61,504 bases of DNA from Actinomycetota bacterium (lineage in GTDB: Bacteria; Actinomycetota; CADDZG01; WHSQ01): contig DASQUP010000144.1 in assembly GCA_035641235.1 (NCBI GenBank), positions 1-61,504 on the forward strand, read 5' to 3'. Of this stretch, positions 27,898 to 47,979 are shown in pieces. The position numbers were made by a program, and so were the translations under genes. How positions within the stretch are numbered: the first letter of the stretch is position 1; every line of letters starts with the position of its first letter. The notes under the pieces are model-generated. The model searched no databases. It was not told the origin of the DNA and was given only the letters and a program-made list of their open reading frames with translations.

Positions 27898-28077
27898 TTA
27901 GTCCTCGCGGCCGAGGAAGTAATAGAGGATTGCGATCGTGACGATCAGCATTCCGGTGAAGGCGATGAACGCGACGCCGCCTTCTTCGCCCGCGTTGATA
28001 CCTCCGGTGCACGCGCCGAGCAGCAGCATCGAAGTTATCGCTGCTGCCACCCGGAGCCTCGAGATCAACACGCGCAT
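27898..28077 (-). CDS. small lipoprotein-like membrane protein (59 aa), last gene of the Rieske/cyt b operon
   Basis: Not in the ORF track. ATG at 28077 with AAGGAG 9 nt upstream, 18 nt after the preceding stop. Encodes MRVLISRLRVAAAITSMLLLGAC (lipobox-like) and a C-terminal TM helix. Confidence 0.5.
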   Translation of the reverse strand: MRVLISRLRVAAAITSMLLLGACTGGINAGEEGGVAFIAFTGMLIVTIAILYYFLGRED

Positions 28078-28095
28078 TAAGAGCTCTCCTTTTAG

Positions 28096-28797
28096 TTAGG
28101 CCGTGGTCTCCACGGGCTCGCGCGCCTTACGCTCCGACCTGCTCAGGCCGAATAGGTGCGCACCTAGAACGATAAGAACGCCGATGGTGATTGTTCGCGC
28201 AGTACCCAGTGGGTTGCCGGGATCGTACTGAAGGACCACGAGAACATTGCCTTCCGATTCGGGGTCGATATCGGGCTCCTGCTCGTCTCCGCTGCCGGTT
28301 TCCGACGATTGCACGATTACGCCGGCGTATATGACCCCGTCCTGCTCCAGCAGGCGTGTGCCGTCCGAGACGGCTGTGGCATCATCCGGAGCCTCGATCG
28401 AAGTGATGTCGCCGGCCGAGATCGCTTCGCCCACGGCCTCGGTGGCGGCCGTTTCCGCTTCGGATTTCTGGGTTGTTTCCGCGTCGTCGTCTTCGTCGGG
28501 AACTCGCCACGGCTCGTCCGGGAACGAACCCGCGGCACCGAAGTCAACATCTCCGCCCTCTCCGAGGGCTTCCGGCGAGAAGCTCGGAAGCTGCCCTACG
28601 GGGCCGAGCGGGCTGGCAGCGTTCGTGAACGACCACACGACGCCCATCATCAGAATGAACGCTAGCGTGACGGATGCGGTCACGAAGTATGCGAGTCGTG
28701 CCCCCAGAACAACCGTCAGCAGCAGCCAGACACTCCCGCAGAAGACGAGGACGGCCGCAATTGTCACCCCTACCCCGGTGACGAAGATCTCGTCCAT
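28096..28797 (-). CDS. membrane protein with acidic extracytoplasmic domain (function unknown, bc-operon member)
   Basis: 233 aa. Two N-terminal TM helices, a D/E-rich middle and a C-terminal TM. The start abuts the cytochrome c stop. Confidence 0.65.
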   Translation of the reverse strand: MDEIFVTGVGVTIAAVLVFCGSVWLLLTVVLGARLAYFVTASVTLAFILMMGVVWSFTNAASPLGPVGQLPSFSPEALGEGGDVDFGAAGSFPDEPWRVPDEDDDAETTQKSEAETAATEAVGEAISAGDITSIEAPDDATAVSDGTRLLEQDGVIYAGVIVQSSETGSGDEQEPDIDPESEGNVLVVLQYDPGNPLGTARTITIGVLIVLGAHLFGLSRSERKAREPVETTA

Positions 28798-29805
28798 CTA
28801 CAGGCTTCGCTCGTACTCGACGACGGCTCGTATCTGACTGTCGGTTAGCGGATACGGGGGCACAGGTATCCCCTGGGCCGGCGCTTCGGAAAAGGTAGGC
28901 ATGAACGCGAACCGACGTCCGTTGATGACGGTCAAGAGATGCTGGCTGCGCGGCAGGTGTCCCACTTTGCCCTGCCACAGCGCCATACCCTGGCGGTAGG
29001 GCTCTTCATCCTTCCCCTGACCCTCGGGACCGTGACACACGGCGCAGCGCGCTTCGAAGATCTCCTGACCGCACTGAAGTGTGTTCTCTCCGCCTATAGG
29101 ATCTGGATCCTGGCACTCCTCCGAGACCTCGGGGGCTTCAGAGTTCTCGGGCAGCGTCCGTAGCCAGTTCATAACGTCGTCGACCATCTGGTCGGTCATC
29201 GAGCCGCCGAACGCCACGCCCCACGCCGGCATGGGCGTCCCGGGGCGGCCGCGCTGAATGGTGAATCTGATGACCTCTTCGTCCCAGCGAGTGAACACGT
29301 TGTTTAGCGGGGGTGCGGCGTACTTCACGGCCTGTTCCGTGACGGGATCGAGGAAGTCGGGAGTCGCGTTCCCGCCGACCCCGTCCGCGCCATGGCAGTT
29401 GATGCACGCCTGCCCGAGAGCTATCTCCCGTTCGCGCTCCCGGAACAGAGCCGGGTCGGCGTCCTCTTCGAGTTGGGGTGGCACCGAATAGATCAGCTCA
29501 CCGCGCTCGACGGACTCCTCGTCGAAACGTTCCGCAAACGCTTCCTGGCGGTCGGCCTCCGGGAGCCAGTAGGCAGGTATGAACAGCGCCAGGGCAACGG
29601 TTGCGATTACGCCCCCAACTTGAACGCGCTGGAGTCTTCTCCCCTCCAGCTTCTCGTCGGTCTCGCCGGGCCGCAGCGCCCGCGGGATGCCGAGTTGCGC
29701 CGCCGGGCTCTTGGGTCTTGTTGTCGACCGAAGAAAGACCCCCCACAGAATGGCCGCACCGAGAATGAGAACGAGCGCGATGACGATGACATCGTTGGAC
29801 TGCAA
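28798..29805 (-). CDS. membrane-anchored dihaem cytochrome c (QcrC-like)
   Basis: Two CxxCH motifs (CINCH, CAVCH). N-terminal TM helices. Confidence 0.88.
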   Translation of the reverse strand: MQSNDVIVIALVLILGAAILWGVFLRSTTRPKSPAAQLGIPRALRPGETDEKLEGRRLQRVQVGGVIATVALALFIPAYWLPEADRQEAFAERFDEESVERGELIYSVPPQLEEDADPALFREREREIALGQACINCHGADGVGGNATPDFLDPVTEQAVKYAAPPLNNVFTRWDEEVIRFTIQRGRPGTPMPAWGVAFGGSMTDQMVDDVMNWLRTLPENSEAPEVSEECQDPDPIGGENTLQCGQEIFEARCAVCHGPEGQGKDEEPYRQGMALWQGKVGHLPRSQHLLTVINGRRFAFMPTFSEAPAQGIPVPPYPLTDSQIRAVVEYERSL

Positions 29806-29823
29806 CTCAGCCTCGCATTTCCA

Positions 29824-30642
29824 TTACGTCGGGACGCACAAGCCCCCCACCGGCTCGGAGAACCGGTCCCAAGTGTCTGTACCACGCGGCGGGCCCGTCT
29901 GGACGGCGCCGGTGTCGACGACCACCTTGCCGCCCTCGATGGCAACGGGAAAGCGGTCGAGCCCGCGCGGTGCGGGTCCGCCGAAGTACTCGCCGTTCAG
30001 CCGGTACTTCGAGCCGTGGCACGGGCACTCAAACAGCATCGAAGTCTCACAGTGCGGAACCGAGCAGCCCAGGTGCACACACTTCCGGTACAGGGCAAGA
30101 AGTTTGGTGTCTACTGCATTGACGGCCGTGTAGACGGGATCGTCTCCCGTGCCCTCGTAGAACGTAAGCCAGAAGCGCCCCTCCGCCACGAACTTGGGTT
30201 TGAATCCGTTGCCGGGGCCGACCTCGTCCAACAGGTCTTCGTAGTTGCCCGCGGTGATCGCGGTGCCGAAACCTCCGGTCAGCTTCGGCCACAGGAACGA
30301 AAGGCTGCTCATCCCAAAGAGCCCGAGGAAGGTCAGGAACGAGGCATTCCATGCACGATTGAGGAACTGGCGCCGAGAGACGGCCATCTGGTCGGGCGTC
30401 AGCGGTTTGCGTTGCTTCTCCGGCACCTTCTGAACGGTTACCTCGCGTGACCCGGCTGTTTCCTGAGTGGTTTGCGCCTGCATGGGTTCGGCCCCGGAGG
30501 TGTGCTCAACGGGGGGTGCGCCCTCCGGAGCGGCGGCAGCAGCCGCCTGCCGCTGCCTGCGGATGGTCACGTTGGCCATGAACAGTGCCCAGGCGGCGAC
30601 GCTCAACGCCACAACTATGAGTGCGATCGTGCCTGGACTCAC
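29824..30642 (-). CDS. qcrA: Rieske 2Fe-2S subunit
   Basis: CVHLGC...CPCHGS Rieske boxes. Internal twin-arginine motif SRRQFLNRAW ahead of the last TM. GTG start. Confidence 0.9.
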   Translation of the reverse strand: MSPGTIALIVVALSVAAWALFMANVTIRRQRQAAAAAAPEGAPPVEHTSGAEPMQAQTTQETAGSREVTVQKVPEKQRKPLTPDQMAVSRRQFLNRAWNASFLTFLGLFGMSSLSFLWPKLTGGFGTAITAGNYEDLLDEVGPGNGFKPKFVAEGRFWLTFYEGTGDDPVYTAVNAVDTKLLALYRKCVHLGCSVPHCETSMLFECPCHGSKYRLNGEYFGGPAPRGLDRFPVAIEGGKVVVDTGAVQTGPPRGTDTWDRFSEPVGGLCVPT

Positions 30643-30654
30643 TTCATTACCCCT

Positions 30655-31509
30655 TTACAACTCGAAGAAGATTCCGTCGTTCCACGGGAACGTGAAGTTG
30701 AACCCTGGTCCCCGGAAGAACATCCCGATGATGGTCAGCACAGCAAAAGTCAGCATGTAGAACGAGAAGATTACGATCGCCACCTTGCGGTCGTCCGGGC
30801 GAGTGGAGGGATTCCGGTCGATGTATGGCCACGCAAACATCGCAATGATGATCACCGTGGGGATCGTCACTCCTGCAACCTGCGGGTGCAGGTAACGCAA
30901 GAGCTCCTGAAGGCCGAGGAAGTACCACGGAGCCTTTGATGGGTTGGGAGTCTGGTTGAAGTTCGCGAGTTCGCGCAGTGGCGCATCGACGGCCGTGGAG
31001 AAGAAGGTCAACAATGCCATCACCACAAGCAGAGACACGAACTCGGCTGCCATTAGGTGTGGCCACACGTTGATGCGGTCCATCGGCTGGCGTTCAACCT
31101 TCTGGATGGCTTCAGGTTTGACGACAGCCAGAAGTCGCTGAACGCGTTCGGGAACGGCGGAGGCTCCGTTGCCGGCGGCCCGGCGGGCCGGCGCGCCGCT
31201 CCTGGGGGCTGCTGCGGGCTTGGATGCCGCCGGCTTGGCGGCGGCCGGAGCCTTGGCGGCAGGCGCTGCTGCCGGTGCCGCGGCGGCGGGCTGTTCGGCC
31301 GGTGTCTCAGCCGCCTCGGCGGGAGTCGCAGCCGCGGGTTCGGCTGCCGGCCTGCTCGCGGTCGACGGGTCGGGCACGTTTGGGGTCTTGGAGCCGCGTT
31401 CGGCCCGCACCCGTGCCGCCTTCGCTCGAGCCTGGGCGACGGCTGGGGAGGAGCCCTTGTCGGTCTCCTCCTTGAGTACCTGTTCGTAGACCTCGTCTGG
31501 AGTCGGCAT
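30655..31509 (-). CDS. cytochrome b C-terminal part (b6f subunit IV-like) with N-terminal conserved module and Ala/Pro-rich linker
   Basis: C-terminal 3-TM region with NPSKAPWYFLGLQELLR (position of the PEWY Qo motif). The N-terminal ~130 aa are a charged module plus an A/P/K-rich low-complexity tract. Confidence 0.8.
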   Translation of the reverse strand: MPTPDEVYEQVLKEETDKGSSPAVAQARAKAARVRAERGSKTPNVPDPSTASRPAAEPAAATPAEAAETPAEQPAAAAPAAAPAAKAPAAAKPAASKPAAAPRSGAPARRAAGNGASAVPERVQRLLAVVKPEAIQKVERQPMDRINVWPHLMAAEFVSLLVVMALLTFFSTAVDAPLRELANFNQTPNPSKAPWYFLGLQELLRYLHPQVAGVTIPTVIIIAMFAWPYIDRNPSTRPDDRKVAIVIFSFYMLTFAVLTIIGMFFRGPGFNFTFPWNDGIFFEL

Positions 31510-31531
31510 AGTCGTAGTCCTCAGTCCGCCC

Positions 31532-32305
31532 CTATATGGGGCCCGAGATGCCTCCGTCCTTTCTCACTCGCCAGAAGTGAATCGAAATGAAGATCACGAT
31601 GAGGAACGGCAAGAACAACACGTGCAGTGTGTACCACCTGATCAGTGTTTCAGGGCCGATCACGGGTCCGCCCAAGAGAGCGAACTGGACCTGATCACCG
31701 ATCACAGGTGAGTTCTTCATCATCTCCGTCCCGACGGTGACCGCCCATACTGCGAGTTGGTCCCACGGCAGCAGGTAGCCCGTAAAGGCCAGCAGCAGCG
31801 TCAACAAGAGAAGGACGACGCCGACGATCCAGTTGAACTCGCGCGGTGGTTTGTAGGCGCCGGTGTAGAAGACCCGGGCCATGTGCAGGAATACCGTTAT
31901 CACCATGAGGTGGGCACCCCACCGATGCAGGTTGCGGACGAGAAGTCCGAACGACACCTGCGTATTAAGTCCCTGCATGTCCGAGTAAACGAGATCCACC
32001 GACGGCCGGTAGAAGAACATCAGGTAGATACCTGTGATCGTCAACAGAATGAACAGGAAGAAGGTAAGTCCACCGAGGCACAACGTGTAGGAAAGCTTGA
32101 CTCCGTGCCGCTTCACCTTCACCGGATGAAGGTGGTAAAGCACCGAGTTCATTACTACGTATGCGCGGTTCCGGGGAGAGTCCGCATACCCCCGCCGAAA
32201 GATAGAACCCGGCCGGAACATAGAGCGCCAGAGCTGGCTTCCGTGGAGCTGATCGAGGCGCTCGCCTACCTTTTCTCTCGGATTCCACCCGGACTCGTTG
32301 GCCAC
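31532..32305 (-). CDS. qcrB: cytochrome b6-type subunit (N-terminal 4-TM cytochrome b)
   Basis: Haem-ligand pairs H-x13-H (HRWGAHLMVITVFLH) and H-x14-H (HVLFLPFLIVIFISIH). YTLCLGG retains the b6/Firmicute haem-ci Cys. GTG at 32305 has GGAGGG 10 nt upstream (ORF track 31532..32407). Confidence 0.88.
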   Translation of the reverse strand: MANESGWNPREKVGERLDQLHGSQLWRSMFRPGSIFRRGYADSPRNRAYVVMNSVLYHLHPVKVKRHGVKLSYTLCLGGLTFFLFILLTITGIYLMFFYRPSVDLVYSDMQGLNTQVSFGLLVRNLHRWGAHLMVITVFLHMARVFYTGAYKPPREFNWIVGVVLLLLTLLLAFTGYLLPWDQLAVWAVTVGTEMMKNSPVIGDQVQFALLGGPVIGPETLIRWYTLHVLFLPFLIVIFISIHFWRVRKDGGISGPI

Positions 32306-32321
32306 TCCGGTCTTTCCCTCC

Positions 32322-32744
32322 CTAGGATGCCTTCTGGGACTCGGGCACAGTTCCCATAGCCCGGGCTCCGCGCTTCTTTTTTCCACCTGCCACCTGGCTC
32401 TGCACAAGAGCGCCTGTGGGGCACCGCTCCACGCAGAGGTTGCAGCGGGTGCATGCGTTGTCGTCGATCAGGAACAGGATGTCGCTGGGATCCATCATCC
32501 CGGCAAGAGCCACGTTGCCGGACTCCGCCACGGCTTCGGGATCCACCATGTGGATGCAGTACCACGGGCAGATGTCTACGCACCCCTCGCAAAGGATGCA
32601 CTGCTCGGGGATGAAATCGATGAAGTTCTTGGGTTTGACGGCGCCCTTGAGCCACTCGTCGTCGACGAGTTGCATCTCGTAGTCGATCCGGAAGATGGGC
32701 TTCTGGATCGTTTCCATTTTGCGCGGCTCTGGTGGTTTGGGCAT
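32322..32744 (-). CDS. 2x[4Fe-4S] ferredoxin-domain protein, soluble
   Basis: CILCEGCVDICP and CTRCNLCVERCP cluster motifs. No TM helix or signal peptide. The stop lies 16 nt before the cyt b6 start. Confidence 0.85.
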   Translation of the reverse strand: MPKPPEPRKMETIQKPIFRIDYEMQLVDDEWLKGAVKPKNFIDFIPEQCILCEGCVDICPWYCIHMVDPEAVAESGNVALAGMMDPSDILFLIDDNACTRCNLCVERCPTGALVQSQVAGGKKKRGARAMGTVPESQKAS

Positions 32745-32750
32745 GTTCCC

Positions 32751-33122
32751 CTATTTCCCGGACATGTAGCCCTTGACGGGGTCCTGGAGACCCCTGGCGC
32801 CGGTGCGCTTCTGCTTGCCCTTCTGCCAGAAGTAGGCCATTCCCAACATCACCACGAGAGCACCGATCTGCACCGTGTTGGCGATGATGTCGCGGACCAT
32901 TGCGATCTGCTTGGGGTTGAGGCCCTCGTCGTTCACGCCTGGGATCTTCGTGGTGAAGTCGATGATGCCCGAGACCTCCTGATCGAAGTAATAAATGATG
33001 TAGGAGGGAATCTGGCCGAGCAGGATGATTGCCAGTATCCAGATGATGCTTCCGAGAACAATGGCGCGAGTCCAGGTCATCGGTTTGTCGGTGTACTTGT
33101 ACACGCGCTCTCGCATCGACAT
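32751..33122 (-). CDS. 2-TM membrane protein, first gene of the Rieske/cyt b operon (function unknown)
   Basis: ORF 32751..33158, ATG at 33122/33116 preferred. Two hydrophobic helices. 6 nt from the ferredoxin start. Confidence 0.6.
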   Translation of the reverse strand: MSMRERVYKYTDKPMTWTRAIVLGSIIWILAIILLGQIPSYIIYYFDQEVSGIIDFTTKIPGVNDEGLNPKQIAMVRDIIANTVQIGALVVMLGMAYFWQKGKQKRTGARGLQDPVKGYMSGK

Positions 33123-33206
33123 TGCGCGCCATCTTACAGTCCTCGTAGGGCCAATCAACTTAAGCGGCCGATCAAGATTCCGCCGTGTGACCTGGGACTT
33201 TGCGCG

Positions 33207-33356
33207 TTAGTGACTGCTATCAGATCGGTTGCTCGAGGAGAGTCCCTCTCGCCGGCGCTCGAGCCGTCGCCGGCGCGCGCCGAGCCACACGAGGTAGGTC
33301 CCCAGCCCAATCGCGACGGCGGAGAAAGCCACGAACATCCAGGCAAGGTCGCTCAT
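33207..33356 (-). CDS. ccmD: CcmD-like haem exporter protein D (49 aa)
   Basis: Not in the ORF track. ATG at 33356, 4 nt after the ccmC stop. MSDLAWMFVAFSAVAIGLGTYLVWLGARRRRLERRRE is a single TM followed by an Arg cluster, as in CcmD. Confidence 0.6.
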   Translation of the reverse strand: MSDLAWMFVAFSAVAIGLGTYLVWLGARRRRLERRREGLSSSNRSDSSH

Positions 33357-33359
33357 CGA

Positions 33360-34070
33360 CTACGTAGCCGCGTGAGTGGGCTGCCGTCTCGCTCCCTGAA
33401 GCTCGAGCTGCCGGATCTCGTCCTCGTCTCGCCCGAGCTTGACTCGTTGGACGAGGAGCCAGGTGAAAAGCAAGGTGAACGCCGCCAGGGAGACGAAGAA
33501 GGCGAGCAGCTCCGGCGCGCCGAGTCCCGAGCTGGCGCTCGGATCCGATGGGGTCGGGCCCGAGGGGTGAAGGGTCCGCCACCACCGCACCGAGAAATGG
33601 ACGATGGGGACATTGATGAAGCCGACGATCCCCACGACCGACGCCATCCGGCCTGCTCTGGTCGGGTCGGTTGCGAGGTTGCGGAGGAATAGGTAACCGA
33701 CGTAGGTGAGCCACATCACCGTGGTCGATGTCAGGCGGGCATCCCACTGCCACCAAGTGCCCCACACCGGGCGCGCCCAGATCGGGCCGGTGATCAGGAC
33801 CAGGGCGCCGAAGAGGACGCCGAGCTCCGCGGCCGAGTGCCCGAGCAGGTCCCACCGGCGCTCGCCGGTGCGCAGGTACACGATCGAGGCGATAAAGGTG
33901 ATGGCGAAGCCGAGGTAGGCGACCCACGCCGACGGGACGTGGAAATAGAAGATGCGCTGGAGCGGACCGCCCATCGAGTCGTCCGCCTCCCTGGCGACGA
34001 AGAAGATGAGGAACAAGGAAACGCCCACGAGCGCCCACGCCGCCACGCCGAGCCGTTTTGTCTTGTCCAT
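33360..34070 (-). CDS. ccmC: haem exporter/haem-handling protein CcmC
   Basis: WWD motif WGTWWQWDARLT. 6 TM. Confidence 0.92.
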   Translation of the reverse strand: MDKTKRLGVAAWALVGVSLFLIFFVAREADDSMGGPLQRIFYFHVPSAWVAYLGFAITFIASIVYLRTGERRWDLLGHSAAELGVLFGALVLITGPIWARPVWGTWWQWDARLTSTTVMWLTYVGYLFLRNLATDPTRAGRMASVVGIVGFINVPIVHFSVRWWRTLHPSGPTPSDPSASSGLGAPELLAFFVSLAAFTLLFTWLLVQRVKLGRDEDEIRQLELQGARRQPTHAAT

Positions 34071-34143
34071 AAGGCAGAGCCTACCGGCGCGCCGCCCCCT
34101 AGATGTCTCCTTAAATGGGCGGGGGCCCAGGGGCCTGAGGGAA

Positions 34144-34186
34144 CTTTGGTCGAAAACCTACTCGTAGCGCAGGTTTTATGCCAAAG
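34144..34186. repeat. nested double hairpin straddling the stop of DUF559 gene 1
   Basis: CTTTGG tcg AAAACCT actcgtagcgc AGGTTTT atg CCAAAG. Shares the 10-mer CGAAAACCTA with the left edge of the type B copy at 54615. Confidence 0.45.
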
Positions 34187-35141
34187 AACGTCCCAGGGCA
34201 TTTGCAATCTCTCTAGCCAGTCCGCTCGGGTCATTTTTCATCCGAGCGTAGGTGACGTGCAACACTCTTTTTCCGCTTGCGGTGAGACGGTTGCGGCGTT
34301 GCAGATCGCGCTCCCAGTCCTTGGGATTGAGGTGATGGCGTCGACTGTCGACCTCGATCACAAGATCTTCATCTGGATAAATGAAGTCCACGCGTGCGAC
34401 GAACCCAGCTTCATCACGCACGACCCGCTGGCGTACTGGCAGAGGAAGGCGCTTGCGGCGGAGCAACTGGAGGAATTTTGTTTCCAGGGCGCTCTCAGTT
34501 GGGGGCGTTAGGGGATCTCTGCCTTCGAGGACGAGTCGCAGAACGCCCGATCCTCGATGGCCGCGTCCGGATGCTTCCTCGAGACGTCTCATGAGCCGAT
34601 CGAGGTTTGTCATTCGCCGGCGCAACGCACACTCCAGCGCAAGCTCCACGACATCGGCCTCCACGACCGCGCCGAGGTCGATCAACGTTCGATGCACAGT
34701 CGACATCGGGATTCCGGCTACCTCTGCAATGTCCCTGCGCGGCACCCCGGTCATCCGATGAACAATGACGTCCGGGCGTGTCGTCCGGAAGTTGCACGAC
34801 GTACTTGCCTCGATCGTCCCCTCTGGAACTTCGTCGAGTTGCCAGAACCCTGCCGCGCCTCGATGCGATGCCCATATTTGACCCGGCTTCCACAACGTCA
34901 CCGCTTTCAGCTGTTGCTTGAAGGAACTCGGCGTTGCCGAATAGCGGTAGACCGTCGGATGCTCACGTACGATCAGGCCGCTCCTCAGGCGCCGCCCGAT
35001 CCCGTGATCCTCGATGCCGACCTCGCGTGCCTGCTTCGAGGTGAAGAGCCCATACTGATTGGCCGCTATCCGCGCTAGAGCAGCGTCGCCTCGGTCGTTG
35101 GTGTGAATCCTGCCCATAAGGGACGTTGTCGCGCCGTCCAA
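34176..35141 (-). CDS. AbiEi-like wHTH plus DUF559 (Vsr-like endonuclease fold) protein, paralog 1
   Basis: N-terminal GLFTSKQAREVGI...GLIVREHPTVYRY. C-terminal DFIYPDEDLVIEVDSRRHH...RRNRLTASGKRVLHVTY. TTG at 35141 or ATG at 35117. Sits between ccmB and ccmC. Confidence 0.8.
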   Translation of the reverse strand: MDGATTSLMGRIHTNDRGDAALARIAANQYGLFTSKQAREVGIEDHGIGRRLRSGLIVREHPTVYRYSATPSSFKQQLKAVTLWKPGQIWASHRGAAGFWQLDEVPEGTIEASTSCNFRTTRPDVIVHRMTGVPRRDIAEVAGIPMSTVHRTLIDLGAVVEADVVELALECALRRRMTNLDRLMRRLEEASGRGHRGSGVLRLVLEGRDPLTPPTESALETKFLQLLRRKRLPLPVRQRVVRDEAGFVARVDFIYPDEDLVIEVDSRRHHLNPKDWERDLQRRNRLTASGKRVLHVTYARMKNDPSGLAREIANALGRSLA

Positions 35142-35196
35142 GCCAGTGTGCTGTGAAATAGATCACAGCGAAGCGTTGCGGCGGCGGCGCGCCGGG

Positions 35197-35946
35197 TTAG
35201 TCGATTGCGAACTCGAAAGCCAGCGCGCCCGTCGTTGTCATGATTACGTCGAACGCCAGCAGGATTCCGAACCAACCCTGCTCCGTCACTGCTCCGAACC
35301 CCCCGCCCAAAAACAAGTCCGAAGACAACTCCAACCCCCCGATGAACGCAGGCACCAGGGCAGGCAGCGCCAGGATCGGCAGGATCAGCTCCCGGCTGCG
35401 AGTTCCGGCGGCGAGCGCCGAGAACAAAGTCCCGATCGCCACGAAGCCGACGTTCACGAGCAACACCACCACGGCCATCGGACCCAGTGACGACACGAGG
35501 TCGACCCCGAAGAGCAAGGCGAAGGCAGGCAGGAGAACCGCCTCAACGAGCAGGATCGAGATGAAGTTCGCCGCCGCCTTTGCAAAAAATAAACCCGTCC
35601 GATCCAGCGGAAGGAGCAGAAGAACGTCGAGCGCGCCCTCCTGCTGGTCCACCTCGAACGTTCGTGCGAACCCGATCAGCCCCGCGAACAGCACGGTCAC
35701 CCAGAAGAATCCGGCGAGCACATCGGCCAGCGGTGCTACCCCCACACCCACCACAGAGGTTGGAGCTTCGAGTCGGCCGGACGTCGGGAGTGTGAACGCT
35801 AGCAACAGAGTCACCGCGAACGAAAACGCCAGCATCGGGGGAAGGGTGTCGCGCGTCCGCAATTCGATGCGTATGTCCTTGCGGGCCAATACTGCCGTCT
35901 TTGCCACCCACCCCCGCTCTGCGCGCGGCGCAGCAATGGAGCTCAC
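35197..35946 (-). CDS. ccmB: haem exporter permease CcmB
   Basis: GTG at 35946 overlaps the ccmA TGA. CcmB-like FEVDQQEGALDVLLLLPLDR segment. 6 TM. Confidence 0.88.
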   Translation of the reverse strand: MSSIAAPRAERGWVAKTAVLARKDIRIELRTRDTLPPMLAFSFAVTLLLAFTLPTSGRLEAPTSVVGVGVAPLADVLAGFFWVTVLFAGLIGFARTFEVDQQEGALDVLLLLPLDRTGLFFAKAAANFISILLVEAVLLPAFALLFGVDLVSSLGPMAVVVLLVNVGFVAIGTLFSALAAGTRSRELILPILALPALVPAFIGGLELSSDLFLGGGFGAVTEQGWFGILLAFDVIMTTTGALAFEFAID

Positions 35947-36611
35947 GACCGCCTCACGGTGGACCGCTTCCGGGGGCCGTATCTGCCCGCCACAACCACT
36001 CGCCCATCGCGCAGGATGATCCCGCCGTCGGCATAGGCCTTCACTTTCTTGGCGCCGTGCGTTGCGATCAGCGCCACCTTCCCGGGCGCGCACCATTCCT
36101 TCACGGCGGTCGAGAGCATTTCCGATGCATCGTCATCGAGGTTTGCGTAGGGCTCGTCAAGAAGAAGCACATCCGGGTCGTGGACGATCGCCCGCGCTAC
36201 CGATGCTCGCCTCTTGAGTCCCGCAGACAGATCGCCCGCATAAGTCGATGCCCGTCCCGACAGGCCCACTGCCGCGAGCGCATCGTCGACGCGCGCCGCC
36301 GGCGCGCCGTACAACCCTGCAAACAGCTCCAGGTTCTCGGCGACGGTTAGGCGTGAATAGAGCCCTGCCGCGTGGCCCGAGTACCCGATCCGCCGCCGAA
36401 AGGATTCATCTCTCAGCGACGGCGGCTGCCCCTCGACCGCAACCGACCCCGACGTCGGTCGCTGCAGCCCGGCAATAACGCGCAGCAGCGTCGACTTACC
36501 GGAGCCGTTCGGCCCGAAGAGCCCTGTGATACCGGCTGCTACATCGAGATCGACCCCGTCGAGAGCAATAGTGCGTCCGAACGCAACCGTGAGGGAGGCC
36601 GCGGAGATCAT
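35943..36611 (-). CDS. ccmA: haem exporter ATPase CcmA
   Basis: Walker A GPNGSGKST, signature LSAGLKRR, Walker B LLLDEP. ATG at 36611 preferred. Confidence 0.9.
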   Translation of the reverse strand: MISAASLTVAFGRTIALDGVDLDVAAGITGLFGPNGSGKSTLLRVIAGLQRPTSGSVAVEGQPPSLRDESFRRRIGYSGHAAGLYSRLTVAENLELFAGLYGAPAARVDDALAAVGLSGRASTYAGDLSAGLKRRASVARAIVHDPDVLLLDEPYANLDDDASEMLSTAVKEWCAPGKVALIATHGAKKVKAYADGGIILRDGRVVVAGRYGPRKRSTVRRS

Positions 36612-36657
36612 GCCCGAACTCGGACGCGCCCGAACGCCGCCTCGCACGCGCCGCGCC

Positions 36658-37836
36658 TCACAGCGTCGGCTCCGGCTGAGCTAGGTTCGCCAGCCTCTCC
36701 TTGAGTTCGGCACGCCGCTTCGACCACTCCTGTTCAGAGATATCTCCTGCTCGATAGCGAAGGTCGAGCGCTGCGATGAGCGACAAGAGATGGTCGCGCG
36801 TCTCGGCAACGGGATGTCCGCCGTATGCGGTCAATCCCTCGACGGGGCGGGGGCCGCGTCGCCGCATGAAAGCGAAACCGACCAACCCAACTGCGAGCAC
36901 CGCAGCGATTCCGATTCCGATGTTCAGTCCGCCGCCTTCGGCCTCCGCGGTGGCCTGAACCTGCAGCCGGTCGCCCCCTTCGATGGTGTCCGTTGTCGCC
37001 CACCGTTCGTAGGTTCGGTCTCCGATCCTCACACGTTCGTCGGGAACGAGCCGGTTGCTGCGAATCGTGAGCGGCGGCTCCGCGTGCACGAGCATGTTGA
37101 GAGTCGGGTACAGCGCTGCACGATTGATGTCGAAGATACCGGCGCTCCCAGGGATCGTGTAGGTGTAGGTGAAGGTGCTCTCTCCAGGGGGAACGGCTGC
37201 GGTAATGGCTAAGCCGAAGTCGCTCTCGGTCGCCCCCGGCACATCGATGCTCGAGTCGACAAGCGGGAAGTCCGGTAGTTCGGCTCCGTCGGGTACTGAG
37301 AACCCGAGCGTGGGACGCGGTCCCTCGTCTCCTCCTCCGCCCCGTCCGATGTAGGCGCGGTTCGAGTTGTTTATGACGATGACCGACTCGATTACATCAA
37401 CGCCTCGATCCGACAATGACAGGAACATGGCATCCCGCTCTACGACGATTACGTCGGGATCGTCGGTCGGTGGCCACACTCGCAACGTGGTGTCCACAAC
37501 GGGAGGCTCGGCCGTGTCCGATGGAAGTCGAACGGCACCTCCGTAGTACCCCTGCCGGAAGTTGGCGGTGAGCGTATAGAGGTACTCGTCCCCCGTCGGA
37601 AGTTTGTCGAACTCAAAGCGTCCGCGCCGGTCGGTGGTAGTGCGTTTGACTTTGGGCTCGCTGCCTTGCTCGCTCGCTTGGGTCAACACGACCCGAACCC
37701 CACGCACACCTCTATCGGAGTCGCCGCGCAAAACCTCGCCGGTGATCGTTCCTTTCTCCGCGGCCTCGACCGGCCCGGCGATCAGCGGCAGCGCTGCCAC
37801 AGCCGCCAGGGCAAACTTCAGGATTCGTGACCGCAT
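36658..37836 (-). CDS. secreted/anchored protein with carboxypeptidase-regulatory-like Ig domain and CcmI-like cytoplasmic tail
   Basis: Signal peptide MRSRILKFALAAVAALPLIAGPVEA. GxVxxxxxxxxVxGVRVVL...TDRRGRFEF beta-sandwich. C-terminal TM, then ALDLRYRAGDISEQEWSKRRAELKERL. Confidence 0.65.
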   Translation of the reverse strand: MRSRILKFALAAVAALPLIAGPVEAAEKGTITGEVLRGDSDRGVRGVRVVLTQASEQGSEPKVKRTTTDRRGRFEFDKLPTGDEYLYTLTANFRQGYYGGAVRLPSDTAEPPVVDTTLRVWPPTDDPDVIVVERDAMFLSLSDRGVDVIESVIVINNSNRAYIGRGGGGDEGPRPTLGFSVPDGAELPDFPLVDSSIDVPGATESDFGLAITAAVPPGESTFTYTYTIPGSAGIFDINRAALYPTLNMLVHAEPPLTIRSNRLVPDERVRIGDRTYERWATTDTIEGGDRLQVQATAEAEGGGLNIGIGIAAVLAVGLVGFAFMRRRGPRPVEGLTAYGGHPVAETRDHLLSLIAALDLRYRAGDISEQEWSKRRAELKERLANLAQPEPTL

Positions 37837-38216
37837 TTGCTGCATGCCTCTCCCGGAACTCTTGGCCCCCCGCACTCGGGACACTCCATTCGAGCTCGAA
37901 TCGCAGCTATCTCCGCTTCGAACTCGTCATCATCGGCCTCACCCCGTTCGATTGCGTCGAGTTCCTTGAGAGCGGCGAGAGCTTCGGCTTCGTACTCGTC
38001 GCGCAGGATCTCGAAGTCGGCCGTCGACAGCTTGCCGATAAGCCGTTCGTTCTCAATGTCCACAAGGGCGCCAAGCGCAGCCTCTTTGCGCGCTCCGGCT
38101 TCCTCCAGCCGGATTGAAACAGAATTAGCCTCCGGCCGCGCCCCGCGCACAAGGGGGATTGAGATGTAGATCCCTGCGACGGTGATGAAAAGGAGGATCA
38201 GTACGATTTCCATCAC
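37818..38216 (-). CDS. CcmI-like N-terminal module protein with C-terminal zinc ribbon
   Basis: N-terminal TM. ALVDIENERLIGKLSTADFEILRDEYEAEA resembles the CcmI/CycH N-terminal motif. C-terminal CPECGG...CSKCG. Confidence 0.55.
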   Translation of the reverse strand: MMEIVLILLFITVAGIYISIPLVRGARPEANSVSIRLEEAGARKEAALGALVDIENERLIGKLSTADFEILRDEYEAEALAALKELDAIERGEADDDEFEAEIAAIRARMECPECGGPRVPGEACSKCGHES

Positions 38217-38671
38217 GGTTCATCCCTGAACGCCGCCAGCTCCGCTTGAACCCGAGCACGGTCCGAGTCGGCGATGCGCGGTCGATCTGCTCCGGCTGCG
38301 GGTTCTCTCTCAGAGGGTGTCCATCGCCTGGCCAGCCAGACGACCAGGGCCAAACCCGCCATCGCGAACAGCGCCGGCGTGACCCATGCGACCCCCTCTT
38401 TAGGTGTTGCTCGGATGCCCGGCCCGTATTCGGCCTCCAAACGATTCAGGATCTGGGCGTCCGTCATCCCCTCGCGTGCCATGCCGGCGATCTCTGCACG
38501 GAGCTCGTCGGACTCCTTCGAGGGGCAGTCGTGAAGTGTGACGCCGTCGCAGAAGGGCGACATGATTCGTTGCGACAGGCGCGCTGCCCTTTCCTCCGGA
38601 GTCTGTGCTGCCGCCACGTGCGTCAGAAACAAACTTCCCGCGAGTGTCAGCGCGAGCAGCCCTGCTTTCAT
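38213..38671 (-). CDS. ccmH: CcmH/NrfF-like protein with non-canonical redox motif
   Basis: ATG at 38671 overlaps the ccmF TGA (ATGA). Signal peptide. RIMSPFCDGVTLHDCPSKESDELRAEI aligns with LRCPKCQNNSIADSNS of canonical CcmH. EYG and a C-terminal TM follow. Confidence 0.75.
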   Translation of the reverse strand: MKAGLLALTLAGSLFLTHVAAAQTPEERAARLSQRIMSPFCDGVTLHDCPSKESDELRAEIAGMAREGMTDAQILNRLEAEYGPGIRATPKEGVAWVTPALFAMAGLALVVWLARRWTPSEREPAAGADRPRIADSDRARVQAELAAFRDEP

Positions 38672-40665
38672 CGTGTGACCACCGCGGGCTCGGAGGCGGG
38701 GCGGCGCGCCCCAGGACTTCTCTGAGGTACCGGCGCTCCACCGCTCATGATGACGACCATGCCCAAGAGCATCACCGCGGCGCCGGCCCAGATCCACCAC
38801 GTGAGCGGATTCACGAAGGCCCGGAGCCCGGCCGCCCCGTCTCTGTCGAGTGACGTCACAACTACATAGAGGTCTTCGACGGGCGTCGTCCTGATGGCAA
38901 CTTCGCTCTGTCGCTGGCCCTGAGCGAAATGGAAGTTCAGCTGCGGTCGCAGCGTGGTGATCTGGCGGTCACCTCTGAAGACGTCGACCTGGGCGGCGTT
39001 GACTTCCTTCTCGGGCGTCGAGCCACGATCCAGTCCCTCGTAGACAAGTGTGTACTCGCCGATCTTCATCGAGTCGCCCACCGGAACAAGCGCCTGGCTC
39101 TCGGTGCGAAATGCTGCGCCCGCAAGGCCCAAAACGATCAACAACACACCAAGGTGGACGACGTAGCCGCCGTACCGGCGGCGATTACGCATGAGGGTTC
39201 GTCCGAGCGCCTCCCGCCAGCCGGCGCCGCGCGTCCTGTACACGCGGCTCCCGCGCACGAACTCACCCGCGATCGCCGTGGCCGTAAATGCACACAGACC
39301 GAACGCCAGCAGTGCGCCCGCGCTGCGCGTGCCCATCGCCGCGACGACGAGCGTGACCCCCGCTCCGGCCAGCAGCGGGATCTGCACCACCCTCAAGAAG
39401 GCTCCTCTGCTCATCCGGCGCCACGAGATCAGGGGTCCGATGCCGGTCAGCGCCACTATTGCGAGTGCGACGGGGATGAAGACCGAATTGAAGAAGGGTG
39501 GTCCCACCGACAGCCGAACTCCAGAGAACGCTTCCGCAACTATCGGGTACATGGTTCCCCACAGGACGGTGAAGGCCGCAGCGAGGAACAGCACATTGTT
39601 CAGTAGGAAAGCGGACTCGCGCGACAACAAAGAGTCGAACCGGTTCTCGCTCCTAAGCCGCTCCCCGCGAGCCACTACAACTACCAACCCGCCGATCAAC
39701 ATGAAGCCAAGGAACGGCAGAAACCATTTCCCCGTTGTGCTCTCCGTGAAGGTGTGGATGCTCGAGAGGATTCCGGAGCGAGTGAGGAACGTGCCGAAGA
39801 GGGCAAGCACGTACGTGAGCAGGATCAAGACTACGTTCCAGACCTTGAACATCCGGCGCTTCTCTTGGATGACCACAGAATGCAGGAATGCAGTCGCCGT
39901 GAGCCATGGCATGAACGAGGCGTTCTCCACCGGATCCCAAGCCCAGTAGCCGCCCCAACCGAGTTCCGTGTAGGCCCAGGCCCCTCCGAGGACGATGCCG
40001 ATAGACAACGAACTCCACGCGAAAAGCGTCCATCGCCGTGTGGACGTGAACCACGAGTCATCCAACCGCCCTGAGAACAGAGCGGCCATCGCGAACGCGA
40101 ACGGCACCGAGAAACCCACGAATCCGGCGTACAACAGCGGTGGGTGTATGAGCATGCCCGGAGACTGAAGCAGCGGGTTCAGCCCCTGGCCGTCCGTGGG
40201 AACGTCGGCCACTTTCGTGAAGGGATCGGCGGGCCCCACAAGCAGCGCGAGGAAAAAGACGGCCACTCCCGCCAAGACGGCGCCCGCCCACGCAACGAGG
40301 CGGTCGGTGCGGGCGCGCGCCCGGATCAGGGCAACTGCAGCAAAGGCGGTTAGGAGGAAGGTCCAGAACAAAAGGGACCCCTCCATGCCGCCCCACAACG
40401 CTGCGAATGTGTACCGGAAACTGAGCGAGCGGGAGGAGTAGTTGACGGCGTACTGGAGGGAGAAGTCGTGAACGAGGAGTGCATGTAACAGCGCCACCAT
40501 CCCGATGGTGACCAGAACGCCTGTGGCAACCATCGCCCTGACGCCGGCCTTGGTGAGCTCGCTGCGCCGCCGCAAGGCGCCGAGCGTGCACAACGCCCCG
40601 GCCGCCAGCGCCACGATCGCTGCAGCGACCAATGACGGGCGTCCCAGGGCAGCAAGCGAATTCAC
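38668..40665 (-). CDS. ccmF: cytochrome c haem lyase subunit CcmF
   Basis: 665 aa polytopic protein. WWD motif WGGYWAWDPVENAS. Confidence 0.93.
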   Translation of the reverse strand: MNSLAALGRPSLVAAAIVALAAGALCTLGALRRRSELTKAGVRAMVATGVLVTIGMVALLHALLVHDFSLQYAVNYSSRSLSFRYTFAALWGGMEGSLLFWTFLLTAFAAVALIRARARTDRLVAWAGAVLAGVAVFFLALLVGPADPFTKVADVPTDGQGLNPLLQSPGMLIHPPLLYAGFVGFSVPFAFAMAALFSGRLDDSWFTSTRRWTLFAWSSLSIGIVLGGAWAYTELGWGGYWAWDPVENASFMPWLTATAFLHSVVIQEKRRMFKVWNVVLILLTYVLALFGTFLTRSGILSSIHTFTESTTGKWFLPFLGFMLIGGLVVVVARGERLRSENRFDSLLSRESAFLLNNVLFLAAAFTVLWGTMYPIVAEAFSGVRLSVGPPFFNSVFIPVALAIVALTGIGPLISWRRMSRGAFLRVVQIPLLAGAGVTLVVAAMGTRSAGALLAFGLCAFTATAIAGEFVRGSRVYRTRGAGWREALGRTLMRNRRRYGGYVVHLGVLLIVLGLAGAAFRTESQALVPVGDSMKIGEYTLVYEGLDRGSTPEKEVNAAQVDVFRGDRQITTLRPQLNFHFAQGQRQSEVAIRTTPVEDLYVVVTSLDRDGAAGLRAFVNPLTWWIWAGAAVMLLGMVVIMSGGAPVPQRSPGARRPASEPAVVTR

Positions 40666-41261: not shown

Positions 41262-41840
41262 CTATTCGAGGACGTACAAGGTCACGAACAAAAAGATCCA
41301 GACGACGTCCACGAAATGCCAGTAGTACGAGACGGCTTCCGCCGTTCCATGTCTGGCAGCCGAGATTCGGCCCCCTCGAGCCGAGGCGTACACCACTCCG
41401 ATTGCCACTAGACCTCCGGCGACATGGAGTCCATGGAAGCCGGTCATCGTGAAAAACAGAGTGGCGAACTGGTTCGTGGAGATGACGAAGTCCTCGCCGA
41501 CGAGTTCTGAGTACTCCCAAGCCTGTCCACCGAGGAAGACCAACCCGAGAGTGATGGTGATCACCAGCCATCTCATCGTCCCGGCGACGTCGTCAGTTCG
41601 TAGGACGGTCACCGCCCGCTGGATTGTGAACGACGAGGCTATGAGAAAGAGAGAGAAGAAGCCGGTGCGCAGTACGGCTATCTCGGCCGTCCCCGGCGGA
41701 GGCCATGGGTCGGTGGCTGCCCGAATCGTGAAGTAGGCGCCGAACAAGCTGCCGAAGAACATCAGTTCTGAGGCGATGAACAGCATCATGCCGAGGAGGG
41801 CGCCCGGAATGCGGCGTTCTCGAACTCCCTGGACGGCCAT
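41262..41840 (-). CDS. haem-copper oxidase subunit III paralog
   Basis: FFGSLFGAYF, TGFHGLHVAGG and YYWHFVDVVW motifs. 192 aa. Confidence 0.88.
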   Translation of the reverse strand: MAVQGVRERRIPGALLGMMLFIASELMFFGSLFGAYFTIRAATDPWPPPGTAEIAVLRTGFFSLFLIASSFTIQRAVTVLRTDDVAGTMRWLVITITLGLVFLGGQAWEYSELVGEDFVISTNQFATLFFTMTGFHGLHVAGGLVAIGVVYASARGGRISAARHGTAEAVSYYWHFVDVVWIFLFVTLYVLE

Positions 41841-43564: not shown

Positions 43565-45435
<1,871 letters not shown>

Positions 45436-45439
<4 letters not shown>

Positions 45440-46047
45440 GCTCTCAGCACGCGGCGGCGCACGCCCCTCCCGAACACCACACGAGTACAGGGCTCGACAA
45501 CGTCAAGCTGGCGATGTGGGCCTTCCTGGGCTCGGAGTGCCTGTTCTTCGGCTCACTCATCTCGACGTACCTCTTGTATCGCAACCGTGTCCTGGATGGA
45601 CCGAAGCCACAAGAGATCTACGACATCCCGTATACGTCCGTCAGTTCGTTCGTGCTGCTCATGTCGTCCGTGACGATGGTCCTTGCACTCGCCGCCATCC
45701 AACGGGGCGATCACCGCGGGTTGCGCATATGGCTGCTGGCGACGGCGATGCTCGGCTCGGTCTTCATCGGCGGGCAGATCTACGAGTTCACGACTTTCGT
45801 CGACGAAGGTCTCAAGCTCTCCACGAGCACCTTCGGCAGCGCGTTCTTCGTGATGACCGGATTCCACGGTGCGCACGTGACGGTTGGAATCTTCATGTTG
45901 TTGTCTCTCGTCGGAATGTCGATGTTCGGGAGGCTGTCGGACCCCGACGGCCCTCGAAAGGTGGAATTGATCGGCCTCTACTGGCACTTCGTGGACATCG
46001 TTTGGATCGTCATCTTCACCGTCGTGTACCTGATCCCCACCAACTAG
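45436..46047 (+). CDS. ctaE: cytochrome c oxidase subunit III
   Basis: ORF 45403..46047. TTG at 45436 overlaps the ctaD TGA. FFGSLISTY, TGFHGAHV and YWHFVDIVW motifs. Confidence 0.88.
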
Positions 46048-46059: not shown

Positions 46060-46410
46060 ATGACCCAGGCAGGCGTCGAACATGCTCCCAGAGAGGAAGG
46101 CGAACTCGCCCATCACCCCGAGCCGCGGCAGTACGTGGTGGTTGGGGTCTGGCTGGCGATCGTCACGGCACTCGAGGTCGCCATCTACTACATCGACAGC
46201 ATGCGCGACATCATCGTGCCGTTCCTATTGGTGTTCGCGTTCATTAAGTTCTTTCTGGTTGCGACCTGGTTCATGCATCTCAAGTTCGACAGCCCACTAT
46301 TTCGCAGGCTGTTCGTCAGTGGCCTCGTCCTCGCTCTTGCCATCTTCGCCATCGTGTTGACCGTGTTCCTTGCGCGCGGCGGCGCGGTGCCTGAGATCGC
46401 AGGCGGATGA
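46060..46410 (+). CDS. ctaF: cytochrome c oxidase subunit IV (bacterial CtaF/COX4_pro type)
   Basis: 116 aa, 3 TM, FIKFFLVATWFMHLKFD motif. Confidence 0.85.
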   Translation: MTQAGVEHAPREEGELAHHPEPRQYVVVGVWLAIVTALEVAIYYIDSMRDIIVPFLLVFAFIKFFLVATWFMHLKFDSPLFRRLFVSGLVLALAIFAIVLTVFLARGGAVPEIAGG

Positions 46411-47276: not shown

Positions 47277-47941
47277 TGAGCCAGCAAGATCCGATGCTGG
47301 GAGAGGTACGTTTCAGGGTCCCGCTCCCGGTTCTGATTCCGGTCACGGCGGTCGTGGTCATCGTTCTGTTGACCTTCGGCTTTTCGCGTGTGCTGCTTGC
47401 ACTCCCTGCGGAGGCCGCTACGGCCGTCGCCACGGTGACTGCCTTGAACATCCTCGGCGCCTGCGCCGTGCTGGCCTCACGACCAAACATCTCACGCAAT
47501 GGGATGGTTGAGCTGGCCGTCGTCGTGATCTATCCCGTGATCATCGGCATCGCGATCGCACAACTGGGTATCGGGGCGGAGGAGCACGCGGAAGCAGCGC
47601 CGCCAGCGGCCGAGGAGGGAGCGCCGGCAGGTGACTCGGGCGGCCCGGTTGCCAGCGGGGGGACTATGGTCGCGGAGGACGTTCAGTTCGCGTCCGACAC
47701 CATTGAGTTAACTGCCGGGGAAGATGTCTCGATCACCTTCGACAACCGCGATGAACTCCAGCACAACGTCGCGATCTATGCAGACGAGGCCGATGCCGAC
47801 GCGCAGGAGAACCCCATCTTCCAGGGGGAGATCATCACCGGGACGACCGTCACCTACGAATTCACGGCCCCGGACGCGGGGGAGTACGTATTCCAGTGTG
47901 ACGTGCATCCCGCGATGGGCGGCACCGTAGTTGTGGAGTAG
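47273..47941 (+). CDS. membrane-anchored cupredoxin (type-1 Cu, amicyanin-like loop)
   Basis: 3 N-terminal TM helices, an A/E/G linker, then a cupredoxin with H (LQHNVAIY) and C-x2-H-x2-M (QCDVHPAM). Confidence 0.8.
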   Translation: MMSQQDPMLGEVRFRVPLPVLIPVTAVVVIVLLTFGFSRVLLALPAEAATAVATVTALNILGACAVLASRPNISRNGMVELAVVVIYPVIIGIAIAQLGIGAEEHAEAAPPAAEEGAPAGDSGGPVASGGTMVAEDVQFASDTIELTAGEDVSITFDNRDELQHNVAIYADEADADAQENPIFQGEIITGTTVTYEFTAPDAGEYVFQCDVHPAMGGTVVVE

Positions 47942-47979
47942 CACTGGAATCGGCCGGAAGGTAGCCGGGAGGTAGGCAT

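Follow-up and report, generated by a model that had tools for sequence, protein, structure and literature searches.

Our analysis of a 61,504-nucleotide stretch of DNA from an Actinomycetota bacterium (GCA_035641235.1, contig DASQUP010000144.1, positions 1-61,504 of the forward strand, WHSQ01 lineage; the whole stretch is called the window below) concerns an operon for a cytochrome b6-type complex III. In this operon the gene of a small 2x[4Fe-4S] ferredoxin is placed between a gene for a protein with two transmembrane (TM) helices, the 2-TM protein, and the gene of cytochrome b6. This gene order recurs in about 150 independent loci, far beyond chance, and the operon type is widespread in Acidimicrobiia and related uncultured Actinomycetota. 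We propose, at roughly even odds, that the ferredoxin is a dedicated cytoplasmic subunit of a respiratory b6-type complex III and links haem bn/ci to the cytoplasm. What appears to be new here is a complex III, probably of the clade of split cytochromes b defined by an APWY motif, that has a dedicated ferredoxin/2-TM module on its cytoplasmic side (n-side), a module whose function is predicted.

Conservation of the gene order and selective constraint

A scan of a genome collection with the ferredoxin alignment recovered 69 loci from 69 species, all of them metagenome-assembled genomes (MAGs) labelled as Actinomycetota or as uncultured Actinomycetes, with ferredoxins 77-88% identical to the window ferredoxin. 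The order 2-TM protein, ferredoxin, b6 is kept in 69 of the 69 species, and the whole order is kept wherever the contig allows it to be followed: ccmA, ccmB, ccmC, 2-TM protein, ferredoxin, b6, subunit IV, Rieske protein, cytochrome c, acidic protein and small peptide, with hemL and hemB following on the other strand. The same architecture is seen in four deeper lineages of Actinomycetota, Acidimicrobiales among them, with ferredoxins 43-58% identical to that of the window: a membrane protein of 119-152 aa comes first, then the ferredoxin, b6, subunit IV, the Rieske protein, cytochrome c and a membrane protein of 249-342 aa. The last of these is the counterpart of the acidic protein of the window and is found at the same position in all lineages examined. 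The neighbours of the operon vary in the deeper lineages (System I ccm or System II resB/ccsA, ctaA/ctaB, cox, hem, nuoA-D), while the core order is constant. A reciprocal metagenome scan starting from b6 yielded 80 loci, sampled in soil, fresh water, the sea and sediments, 62 of them with at least 480 nt upstream; in all 62 a ferredoxin homologue lies directly upstream of b6, and a 2-TM gene usually precedes it. An earlier note on this DNA, made from the sequence alone, had made the ferredoxin-b6 adjacency across relatives a test of its proposal, and the two genes are syntenic in every relative examined, down to those with 43-58% identical ferredoxins.

The exhaustive ferredoxin search among 50%-identity cluster representatives gave, at E<=1e-10, about 90 clusters. 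The distinctive N-terminal segment of the ferredoxin is present in most of the nearest ones, and the remoter matches are generic Fer4 domains in larger proteins. The largest ferredoxin subfamily is that of the Acidimicrobiales, with 2107 clusters at 90% identity; in three other subfamilies the members with a named source are labelled Actinomycetota.

The constancy of this position bears on the possibility that the ferredoxin is an independent soluble carrier merely co-transcribed with the complex, serving CtaA or a step of haem biosynthesis, or that it acts on the p-side after hitch-hiking on the Rieske protein, which depends on twin-arginine translocation (Tat). Mitochondrial haem A synthase depends on a ferredoxin, ctaA/ctaB adjoin the operon in one lineage (L076), hem genes adjoin it in several, and a twin-arginine motif is present in the Rieske protein. 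We consider both variants very unlikely, because the ferredoxin position is invariant amid changing neighbours: ccm or resB/ccsA, hem, nuo and cox genes come and go, whereas the slot between the 2-TM protein and b6 is the same in about 150 loci. The conserved tails of the ferredoxin and the matching extension of b6 (see below) also argue for a fixed partner. The p-side variant is further weakened by the absence of a signal peptide from the ferredoxin itself, and we are not aware of any ferredoxin exported together with a Rieske protein in this way.

All eight genes of the operon are under purifying selection, with ratios of nonsynonymous to synonymous substitution rates (dN/dS, NG86) of 0.06-0.38; dS is saturated and the ranking alone is meaningful. 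In this ranking the ferredoxin is the second most constrained product after b6. The genes, all in the same orientation within 27898-33122, are given here with the basis of their assignment, the mean identity to the window within the window's lineage, and dN/dS.

32751..33122, minus strand: 2-TM membrane protein, 123 aa (homologue lengths, TM prediction); identity ~65%, dN/dS 0.29
32322..32744, minus strand: 2x[4Fe-4S] ferredoxin, 140 aa (Pfam Fer4 families, two Cys motifs); identity ~82%, dN/dS 0.11
31532..32305, minus strand: cytochrome b6, 257 aa, GTG start (PF00033, 158 bits); identity ~89%, dN/dS 0.06
30655..31509, minus strand: subunit IV-like protein, 284 aa (PF00032); identity ~74%, dN/dS 0.13
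29824..30642, minus strand: Rieske [2Fe-2S] protein, 272 aa (PF00355); identity ~69%, dN/dS 0.20
28798..29805, minus strand: membrane-anchored dihaem cytochrome c, 335 aa (two CxxCH motifs, PF00034/PF13442); identity ~58%, dN/dS 0.22
28096..28797, minus strand: acidic membrane protein, 233 aa, isoelectric point (pI) 4.05 (TM helices; without family); identity ~46%, dN/dS 0.30
27898..28077, minus strand: small membrane peptide, 59 aa, with lipobox-like LLGAC (open reading frame; relatives in 45+ loci); identity ~55%, dN/dS 0.38

Genes were identified by reading open reading frames (ORFs) and by profile hidden Markov model (HMM) matches to Pfam and NCBIfam with the family cut-offs. Both agree with the eight packed minus-strand genes and the identities that the earlier note had given them. 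The core products could be assigned by the profile searches proposed there, and the 2-TM, 233-aa and 59-aa products match no Pfam or NCBIfam family, in the window or in the distant lineages. All eight ORFs exist, but the span to 33158 first given for the operon needs correction. The longest ORF of the 2-TM gene does reach 33158; since its homologues have 121-123 aa, the start is probably the ATG at 33122. For b6 the start is the GTG at 32305, with GGAGGG as ribosome-binding site in front of it, and with this start the apparent overlap with the ferredoxin gene is gone. With the corrected starts the intercistronic gaps are 6, 16, 22, 12, 18, 0 and 18 nt, so the range of 0-22 nt read initially still holds. 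This spacing fits one transcript of eight genes. A scan for consensus promoters and terminators found no promoter-like site and terminator-like sites at chance level, and Rfam and tRNA scans of the window gave no match.

Features of the ferredoxin

The ferredoxin is acidic (pI 5.0) and has no TM segment, signal peptide or Tat motif. Its cluster motifs are CILCEGCVDICP and CTRCNLCVERCP, both of Pfam Fer4 families. The two CxxCxxCxxxCP motifs, with an insertion between them as in the bound subunits NuoI/NdhI/HycF and PsaC/PscB, are kept in 68-69 of 69 loci, and an N-terminal segment (residues 10-47) and a basic C-terminal tail are conserved as well. Beyond the eight ligand Cys there is a ninth, C63, in a CPWxC motif (residues 59-63), which is found in 142 of 143 loci; Trp61 and C63 are invariant across all ferredoxin subfamilies. 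The protein scores below every named-family cut-off in NCBIfam (NuoI TIGR01971, 37.7 bits versus 113). Pfam and NCBIfam revealed no flavin- or nucleotide-binding domain on the ferredoxin or across the operon, in the window and the four deeper lineages.

An AlphaFold2 model of the ferredoxin alone, based on a 101-sequence alignment, has a predicted local distance difference test (pLDDT) value of 72.1; a 42-sequence alignment gave 51.7 and was dropped. While the core reaches a pLDDT of 80-90, residues 1-40 and the C-terminal tail remain at 43-68. Conserved tails that are modelled with low confidence in isolation are as expected for segments that become ordered on a partner. The best Foldseek match of the model is PscB (7z6q_B, E=7e-4, TM-score 0.38-0.43), a weak match to a model of pLDDT 72. 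PscB is a subunit of the green-sulfur reaction centre; the further matches, NuoI, NdhI and FwdF, are weak as well. All four are 2[4Fe-4S] subunits bound in membrane complexes or other large redox complexes, which we take as a lead. A sequence search of the PDB found no solved complex that holds a relative of the ferredoxin together with a b6.

Some candidates were rejected. Two loci matched via an IPEQCILC pattern only (L070, Thermoflexales; L071, Nitrospirota) have HdrA-like and NuoF/hydrogenase contexts without cytochrome b and are unrelated. Apparent fusions of the 2-TM protein with the ferredoxin, or of both with b6 (P0260, P0270, P0275, P0278, P0335), are frameshift-garbled and were not accepted as Rosetta-stone evidence.

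Cytochrome b6, subunit IV and the small membrane proteins

Cytochrome b comes as two products of adjacent genes, b6 with four helices and subunit IV with three, as judged from TM prediction and from PF00033 and PF00032 on separate products. It is not the long fused QcrB, in line with the first reading of the sequence: the actinobacterial QcrB model gives 128.4 bits (NF050120, cut-off 500). b6 aligns end to end with b6 chains of the PDB (1VF5_A, E=1e-48). Its four haem-ligand His, H127/H141 and H228/H243, align with H86/H100 and H187/H202 of 1VF5_A and are invariant in five lineages. Cys76 (YTLCLGG) aligns with Cys35 (FYCLGG) of the 1VF5 b6 and is the predicted haem ci/cn site; the CLGG Cys, whose retention had been pointed out in the earlier note, is present in 149 of 149 loci. 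Among the NCBIfam models, ExtP scores highest with 296.7 bits (cut-off 290), compared with 212 bits for the generic b6 model. The match above cut-off to NF040969, "selenite/tellurite reduction operon b-type cytochrome ExtP", would give this respiratory b6 a misleading name in automatic annotation.

A basic N-terminal extension of ~50 aa with the pattern SQxWxSxFRPGSxxRxGY distinguishes the b6 of the window from the PDB b6 chains, in which it is missing, and the NCBIfam ExtP model does not cover it, the match to that model starting at ~residue 51. Many of its positions are invariant (FRPGS in 149/151 loci), and the first 79 residues of b6 contain 13 K+R versus 5 D+E. In b6f structures the b6 N-terminus faces the n-side. 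The best plasmid-borne relative, a cytochrome b of Bacteroidota with 39.6% identity and a match from residue 53, has neither the extension nor an upstream ferredoxin, which is a single case. Residues 56-67 of b6 read LYHLHPVKVKRH; this segment contains three His and is identical in 146 of 150 loci.

Subunit IV has three predicted C-terminal TM helices and the Qo motif KAPWYF. APWY is found in 125 of 126 loci, in place of the canonical PEWY/PDWY with its acidic second residue. The lack of the Qo glutamate described earlier is therefore real but not a private oddity of this organism, as APWY defines a published clade (see below). Subunit IV reaches 55 bits with NCBIfam ExtQ, below cut-off, and in the PDB it matches only C-terminal halves of long cytochromes b and not PetD. 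After a short conserved helix-like segment it carries an Ala/Pro-rich low-complexity N-terminal extension of ~100 residues (residues ~40-120), which varies in length and is nearly absent in L077 with its 181-aa subunit IV.

The TM helices of the 2-TM protein span residues 20-38 and 79-97, with 5, 3 and 7 K+R in N-terminus, loop and C-terminus, respectively. Since both termini are basic and the loop is acidic, both termini are predicted to be cytoplasmic. The protein is homologous across the lineages, with its gene directly upstream of the ferredoxin gene. The 233-aa acidic protein has TM helices at both ends and a large acidic domain predicted to be extracellular. The 59-aa peptide is kept in 45+ related loci at about 55% identity; in L076 a 34-aa TM peptide takes its position.

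An invariant haem ci Cys raises the question of whether the ferredoxin and the 2-TM protein form an assembly or maturation factor. They would then deliver n-side reductant for the haem iron and Cys76 during covalent attachment of haem ci and would be a counterpart of the chloroplast CCB pathway (System IV). Haem ci attachment in chloroplasts needs a dedicated n-side system, the co-occurrence with an always-CLGG b6 fits maturation equally well, and the operon lies among cytochrome-maturation and haem-biosynthesis genes. Family searches detected no component of the CCB pathway in the operon, and the 2-TM protein in particular matches no YGGT/CCB-type or other Pfam family. Moreover, constraint on the ferredoxin exceeds that on the Rieske protein and on subunit IV, whereas assembly factors usually evolve faster. 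The position of its gene in the middle of a structural operon with short gaps suggests stoichiometric production, and the conserved N-terminal extension of b6 suggests a permanent docking surface. We therefore regard a role in maturation as unlikely.

Rieske protein and cytochrome c

The Rieske protein has an N-terminal TM helix, a twin-arginine motif (SRRQF; the twin arginine is present in 113 of 113 loci) and both cluster boxes, CVHLGC and CPCHGSKY. At residues 206-213 CPCH is followed by G-S-K-Y, a signature of the S-Y type, which is present in 106 of 107 loci. Actinomycetota use menaquinone, and the signature predicts a Rieske protein of the high-potential type in the window although this quinone has a low potential. 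According to the signature rule, S-Y predicts a potential above +260 mV (PMC4122944). The Rieske protein scores 67 bits with the PetC models of NCBIfam, below the cut-off of 154, and 20 bits with the QcrA model (cut-off 275). Cytochrome c has the haem motifs CINCH and CAVCH and bears a weak resemblance to actinobacterial QcrC (27.5 bits, cut-off 200).

Genomic context

On one flank of the operon hemA, hemC, hemD, hemB and hemL are found, on the other ccmC, ccmB and ccmA, with an AbiEi/DUF559 gene among them, followed by ccmH and ccmF. Beyond the ccm genes lie a COX3-like gene, ccmG, a COX2-cytochrome c fusion, COX1, COX3, two CtaG genes and a cupredoxin gene. Because this respiratory supercluster surrounds it, the operon most simply encodes a menaquinol:cytochrome c reductase that feeds a caa3-type oxidase, and it is most likely the menaquinol:cytochrome c reductase of the organism.

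The AbiEi_4 antitoxin-like and DUF559 gene at 34176-35141 (minus strand), between ccmC and ccmB, has no counterpart in 68 of 69 related loci, with a weak match elsewhere in L053, and has the look of an insertion specific to this strain. Directly after ccmC, at the position expected for ccmD, a 49-aa ORF with a single TM helix (33207-33356, minus strand) has no Pfam match. There are two COX3-family genes, one by ccmG (41262-41840, minus strand) and one after COX1 (45403-46047, plus strand). Two CtaG (Caa3_CtaG) paralogues flank the cupredoxin gene, with a bacterial eRF1-like (baeRF) protein encoded downstream (46407-48825 and 48916-50193, plus strand).

The cytochrome maturation system next to the operon differs between lineages: System I ccmABCFH adjoins it in the window lineage (33360-40665) and in L077 (1533-6131), System II resB/ccsA in L075 (1775-5709). 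In an Acidimicrobiales MAG (L072, 12148-14417) nuoA-D begin 3 nt after the last gene of the operon, and complexes I and III may be co-transcribed there.

Relation to known complexes

Split cytochromes b of the APWY clade occur in Deltaproteobacteria, Chloroflexi, Nitrospirales, Planctomycetes, some Firmicutes and deep-branching Actinobacteria including Ilumatobacter (Kao & Hunte 2014, PMC4122944). The clade, which includes Acidimicrobiia, is biochemically uncharacterised, and reverse operation was suggested by the authors (PMC4122944). Judged by its motifs (split b6 and subunit IV, APWY in the Qo site, CxGG Cys for haem ci) and by the HMM scores (ExtP, a Geobacter protein by its NCBIfam name, 296.7 versus generic b6 212 bits), the window b6 probably belongs to this clade, which also includes the Geobacter ExtOPQ-type complexes. 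In contrast to the proposed reverse operation, the context of the window with caa3 oxidase, ccm and hem genes points to forward respiration. The clade likely overlaps subfamily G, a heterogeneous group of mostly short cytochromes b with CxGG, whose genes often co-occur with those of NAD(P)-binding FeS oxidoreductases (Dibrova et al. 2013/2017, PMC5600118). The accessible parts of the papers on both groups make no mention of a small 2[4Fe-4S] ferredoxin, a 2-TM protein or a b6 extension (PMC4122944, PMC5600118).

The closest parallel comes from anammox bacteria. For the complexes Kuste4569-4574 and Kustd1480-1485 (Kartal et al. 2013), AlphaFold3 models suggested a path from haem bN/cN to flavin adenine dinucleotide, FAD (Hauser et al. 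2025, PMC12954380). This path passes an additional haem b, predicted to sit between the N-terminal regions of the two b6 and bound to an N-terminal His, and then four FeS clusters, and the Rieske proteins were measured above +300 mV (PMC12954380). The operon of the window shares with these complexes a b6-type core with a haem cN site, a high-potential-type Rieske protein together with menaquinone, and a cytoplasmic FeS partner, which in the window is a predicted one. The partner itself differs, since it is a large FAD/NAD(P)-binding FeS protein with ~four clusters in anammox bacteria, but a 140-aa ferredoxin without flavin or nucleotide domain here. Furthermore, the anammox subunit IV has five TM helices and the c-type partners have six to eight haems, compared with three predicted TM helices and two haems in the window. 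The ferredoxin of the window is accompanied by its own 2-TM protein, and the setting is one of aerobic respiration.

The b6f complex provides the closest solved b6 (1VF5_A); it has the split b6/subunit IV, its haem cn faces the n-side, and donation by ferredoxin has long been proposed there. Unlike the complex of the window, b6f has no ferredoxin subunit, and contact with ferredoxin or FNR is transient and debated. It also differs by PEWY, cytochrome f, plastoquinone, the small Pet subunits and the lack of the b6 N-terminal extension. The b6c complexes of Firmicutes and heliobacteria (QcrABC, PetABCD) resemble the window complex in that they are from Gram-positive bacteria, oxidise menaquinol, and have a split cytochrome b, a haem ci Cys and c-type partners. 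They read PDWY or PEWY at the Qo site, Bacilli have subunit IV and cytochrome c as one fused protein, and to our knowledge the operons of this group contain no ferredoxin cistron. With the QcrCAB complexes of Mycobacterium and Corynebacterium the window complex shares the phylum, the presumed feeding of an aa3 oxidase, a dihaem cytochrome c, a Tat-dependent Rieske protein, which is a multi-TM protein in QcrCAB, and small lineage-specific accessory membrane subunits. QcrCAB differs by a long fused QcrB, PDWY and the lack of the haem ci Cys. As indicated by QcrB, QcrA and QcrC scores far below the cut-offs (128/500, 20/275 and 27.5/200), the window complex is not a bcc complex of the QcrCAB type.

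The remark of the earlier note that it knew of no characterised bc/b6f complex with a ferredoxin cistron directly in front of b6 needs qualification. We found no description of a ferredoxin in bc/b6 operons of Acidimicrobiia or Actinobacteria in a literature that was covered incompletely, especially as regards subscription journals. On the other hand, cytoplasmic FeS partners as such have been proposed for anammox complexes and for subfamily G (PMC12954380, PMC5600118).

Proposed function of the ferredoxin

We propose that this complex III, probably of the APWY clade, would pass electrons from menaquinol via the dihaem cytochrome c to the neighbouring caa3 oxidase, and that the ferredoxin would be its stoichiometric iron-sulfur subunit on the n-side. 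Three conserved basic n-side elements may hold it in place, namely both ends of the 2-TM protein, the b6 extension and perhaps the N-terminal end of subunit IV. The charges are complementary, the ferredoxin being acidic and the 2-TM termini and the b6 N-terminus basic. The two [4Fe-4S] clusters would electrically join haem bn/haem ci at the quinone-reduction site with the cytoplasm.

Electrons may take this path in either direction. For entry, ferredoxin-level donors would reduce menaquinone via haem ci and the Qi site, similar to the ferredoxin:plastoquinone reductase proposed for b6f. For exit, bifurcation driven by menaquinol would deliver the second electron to an acceptor of low potential, in the way suggested for the anammox complexes. 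With menaquinone at about -74 mV and a Rieske protein at ~+300 mV, the second electron would be at roughly -450 mV (2 x -74 - 300), a rough estimate that builds on the S-Y signature rule and ignores the membrane potential. Exit is thermodynamically conceivable, because a high-potential-type Rieske protein is present in a menaquinone phylum and -450 mV is low enough for a [4Fe-4S] cluster.

Several points weigh against this proposal. The association of the ferredoxin with the complex is deduced from indirect evidence, and co-transcription from gene spacing, the promoter and terminator scan being uninformative. The model of the ferredoxin is of moderate quality (pLDDT 72), and its fold matches are weak (TM-score about 0.38) and reflect a generic ferredoxin fold. 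No dehydrogenase or reductase module is present in the operon of the window or of the four deeper lineages. It is not evident what an aerobic complex III would need such a port for, and a low-potential electron leaving via the ferredoxin would cut the efficiency of the Q cycle.

Alternatively, the ferredoxin would be bound to the complex without being a through-route, acting instead as an electron buffer or safety valve of the low-potential chain or as a redox or oxygen sensor by which the complex is tuned. Whatever speaks for association also speaks for this reading, the operon contains no partner dehydrogenase in any lineage examined, and for apparent aerobes with a caa3 oxidase the control of reactive oxygen at complex III matters. 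Two tandem classical CxxCxxCxxxCP clusters have, however, the arrangement typical of an electron wire and nothing specific indicates sensing, so that we think such a role improbable, even though sequence by itself does not separate it from the ferredoxin as an electron-conducting subunit.

Implications for complex III of environmental Actinomycetota

The role of haem ci/cn, and the feeding of ferredoxin electrons into the n-side of b6f-type complexes, have been debated since the first b6f structures. If the ferredoxin does conduct electrons as a subunit, its genetically hard-wired place beside a haem-ci-capable b6 would provide a natural, stable model for the ferredoxin-b6 contact and would also allow an independent test of the electron-bifurcation idea raised for the Rieske/cytochrome b complexes of anammox bacteria. 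The system lends itself to experimental work on what haem ci does. Current annotation would read "ExtP selenite/tellurite reduction cytochrome" and "NuoI/HycF-like ferredoxin".

More tentatively, and with clearly less confidence than in a subunit role as such, we suggest that in a large group of aerobic Actinomycetota with worldwide abundance, made up of Acidimicrobiia and related uncultured classes, complex III might have a built-in ferredoxin port on haem ci. This port might couple the menaquinone pool to ferredoxin-level chemistry, either as a ferredoxin:menaquinone reductase via Qi or by menaquinol-driven bifurcation, and it might use an extra haem on the invariant N-terminal His of b6, as modelled for anammox. 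Soil, fresh water and the sea all harbour Acidimicrobiia and related bacteria in large numbers, and a complex of the type described here may therefore be the normal respiratory complex III of a considerable part of the environmental Actinomycetota.

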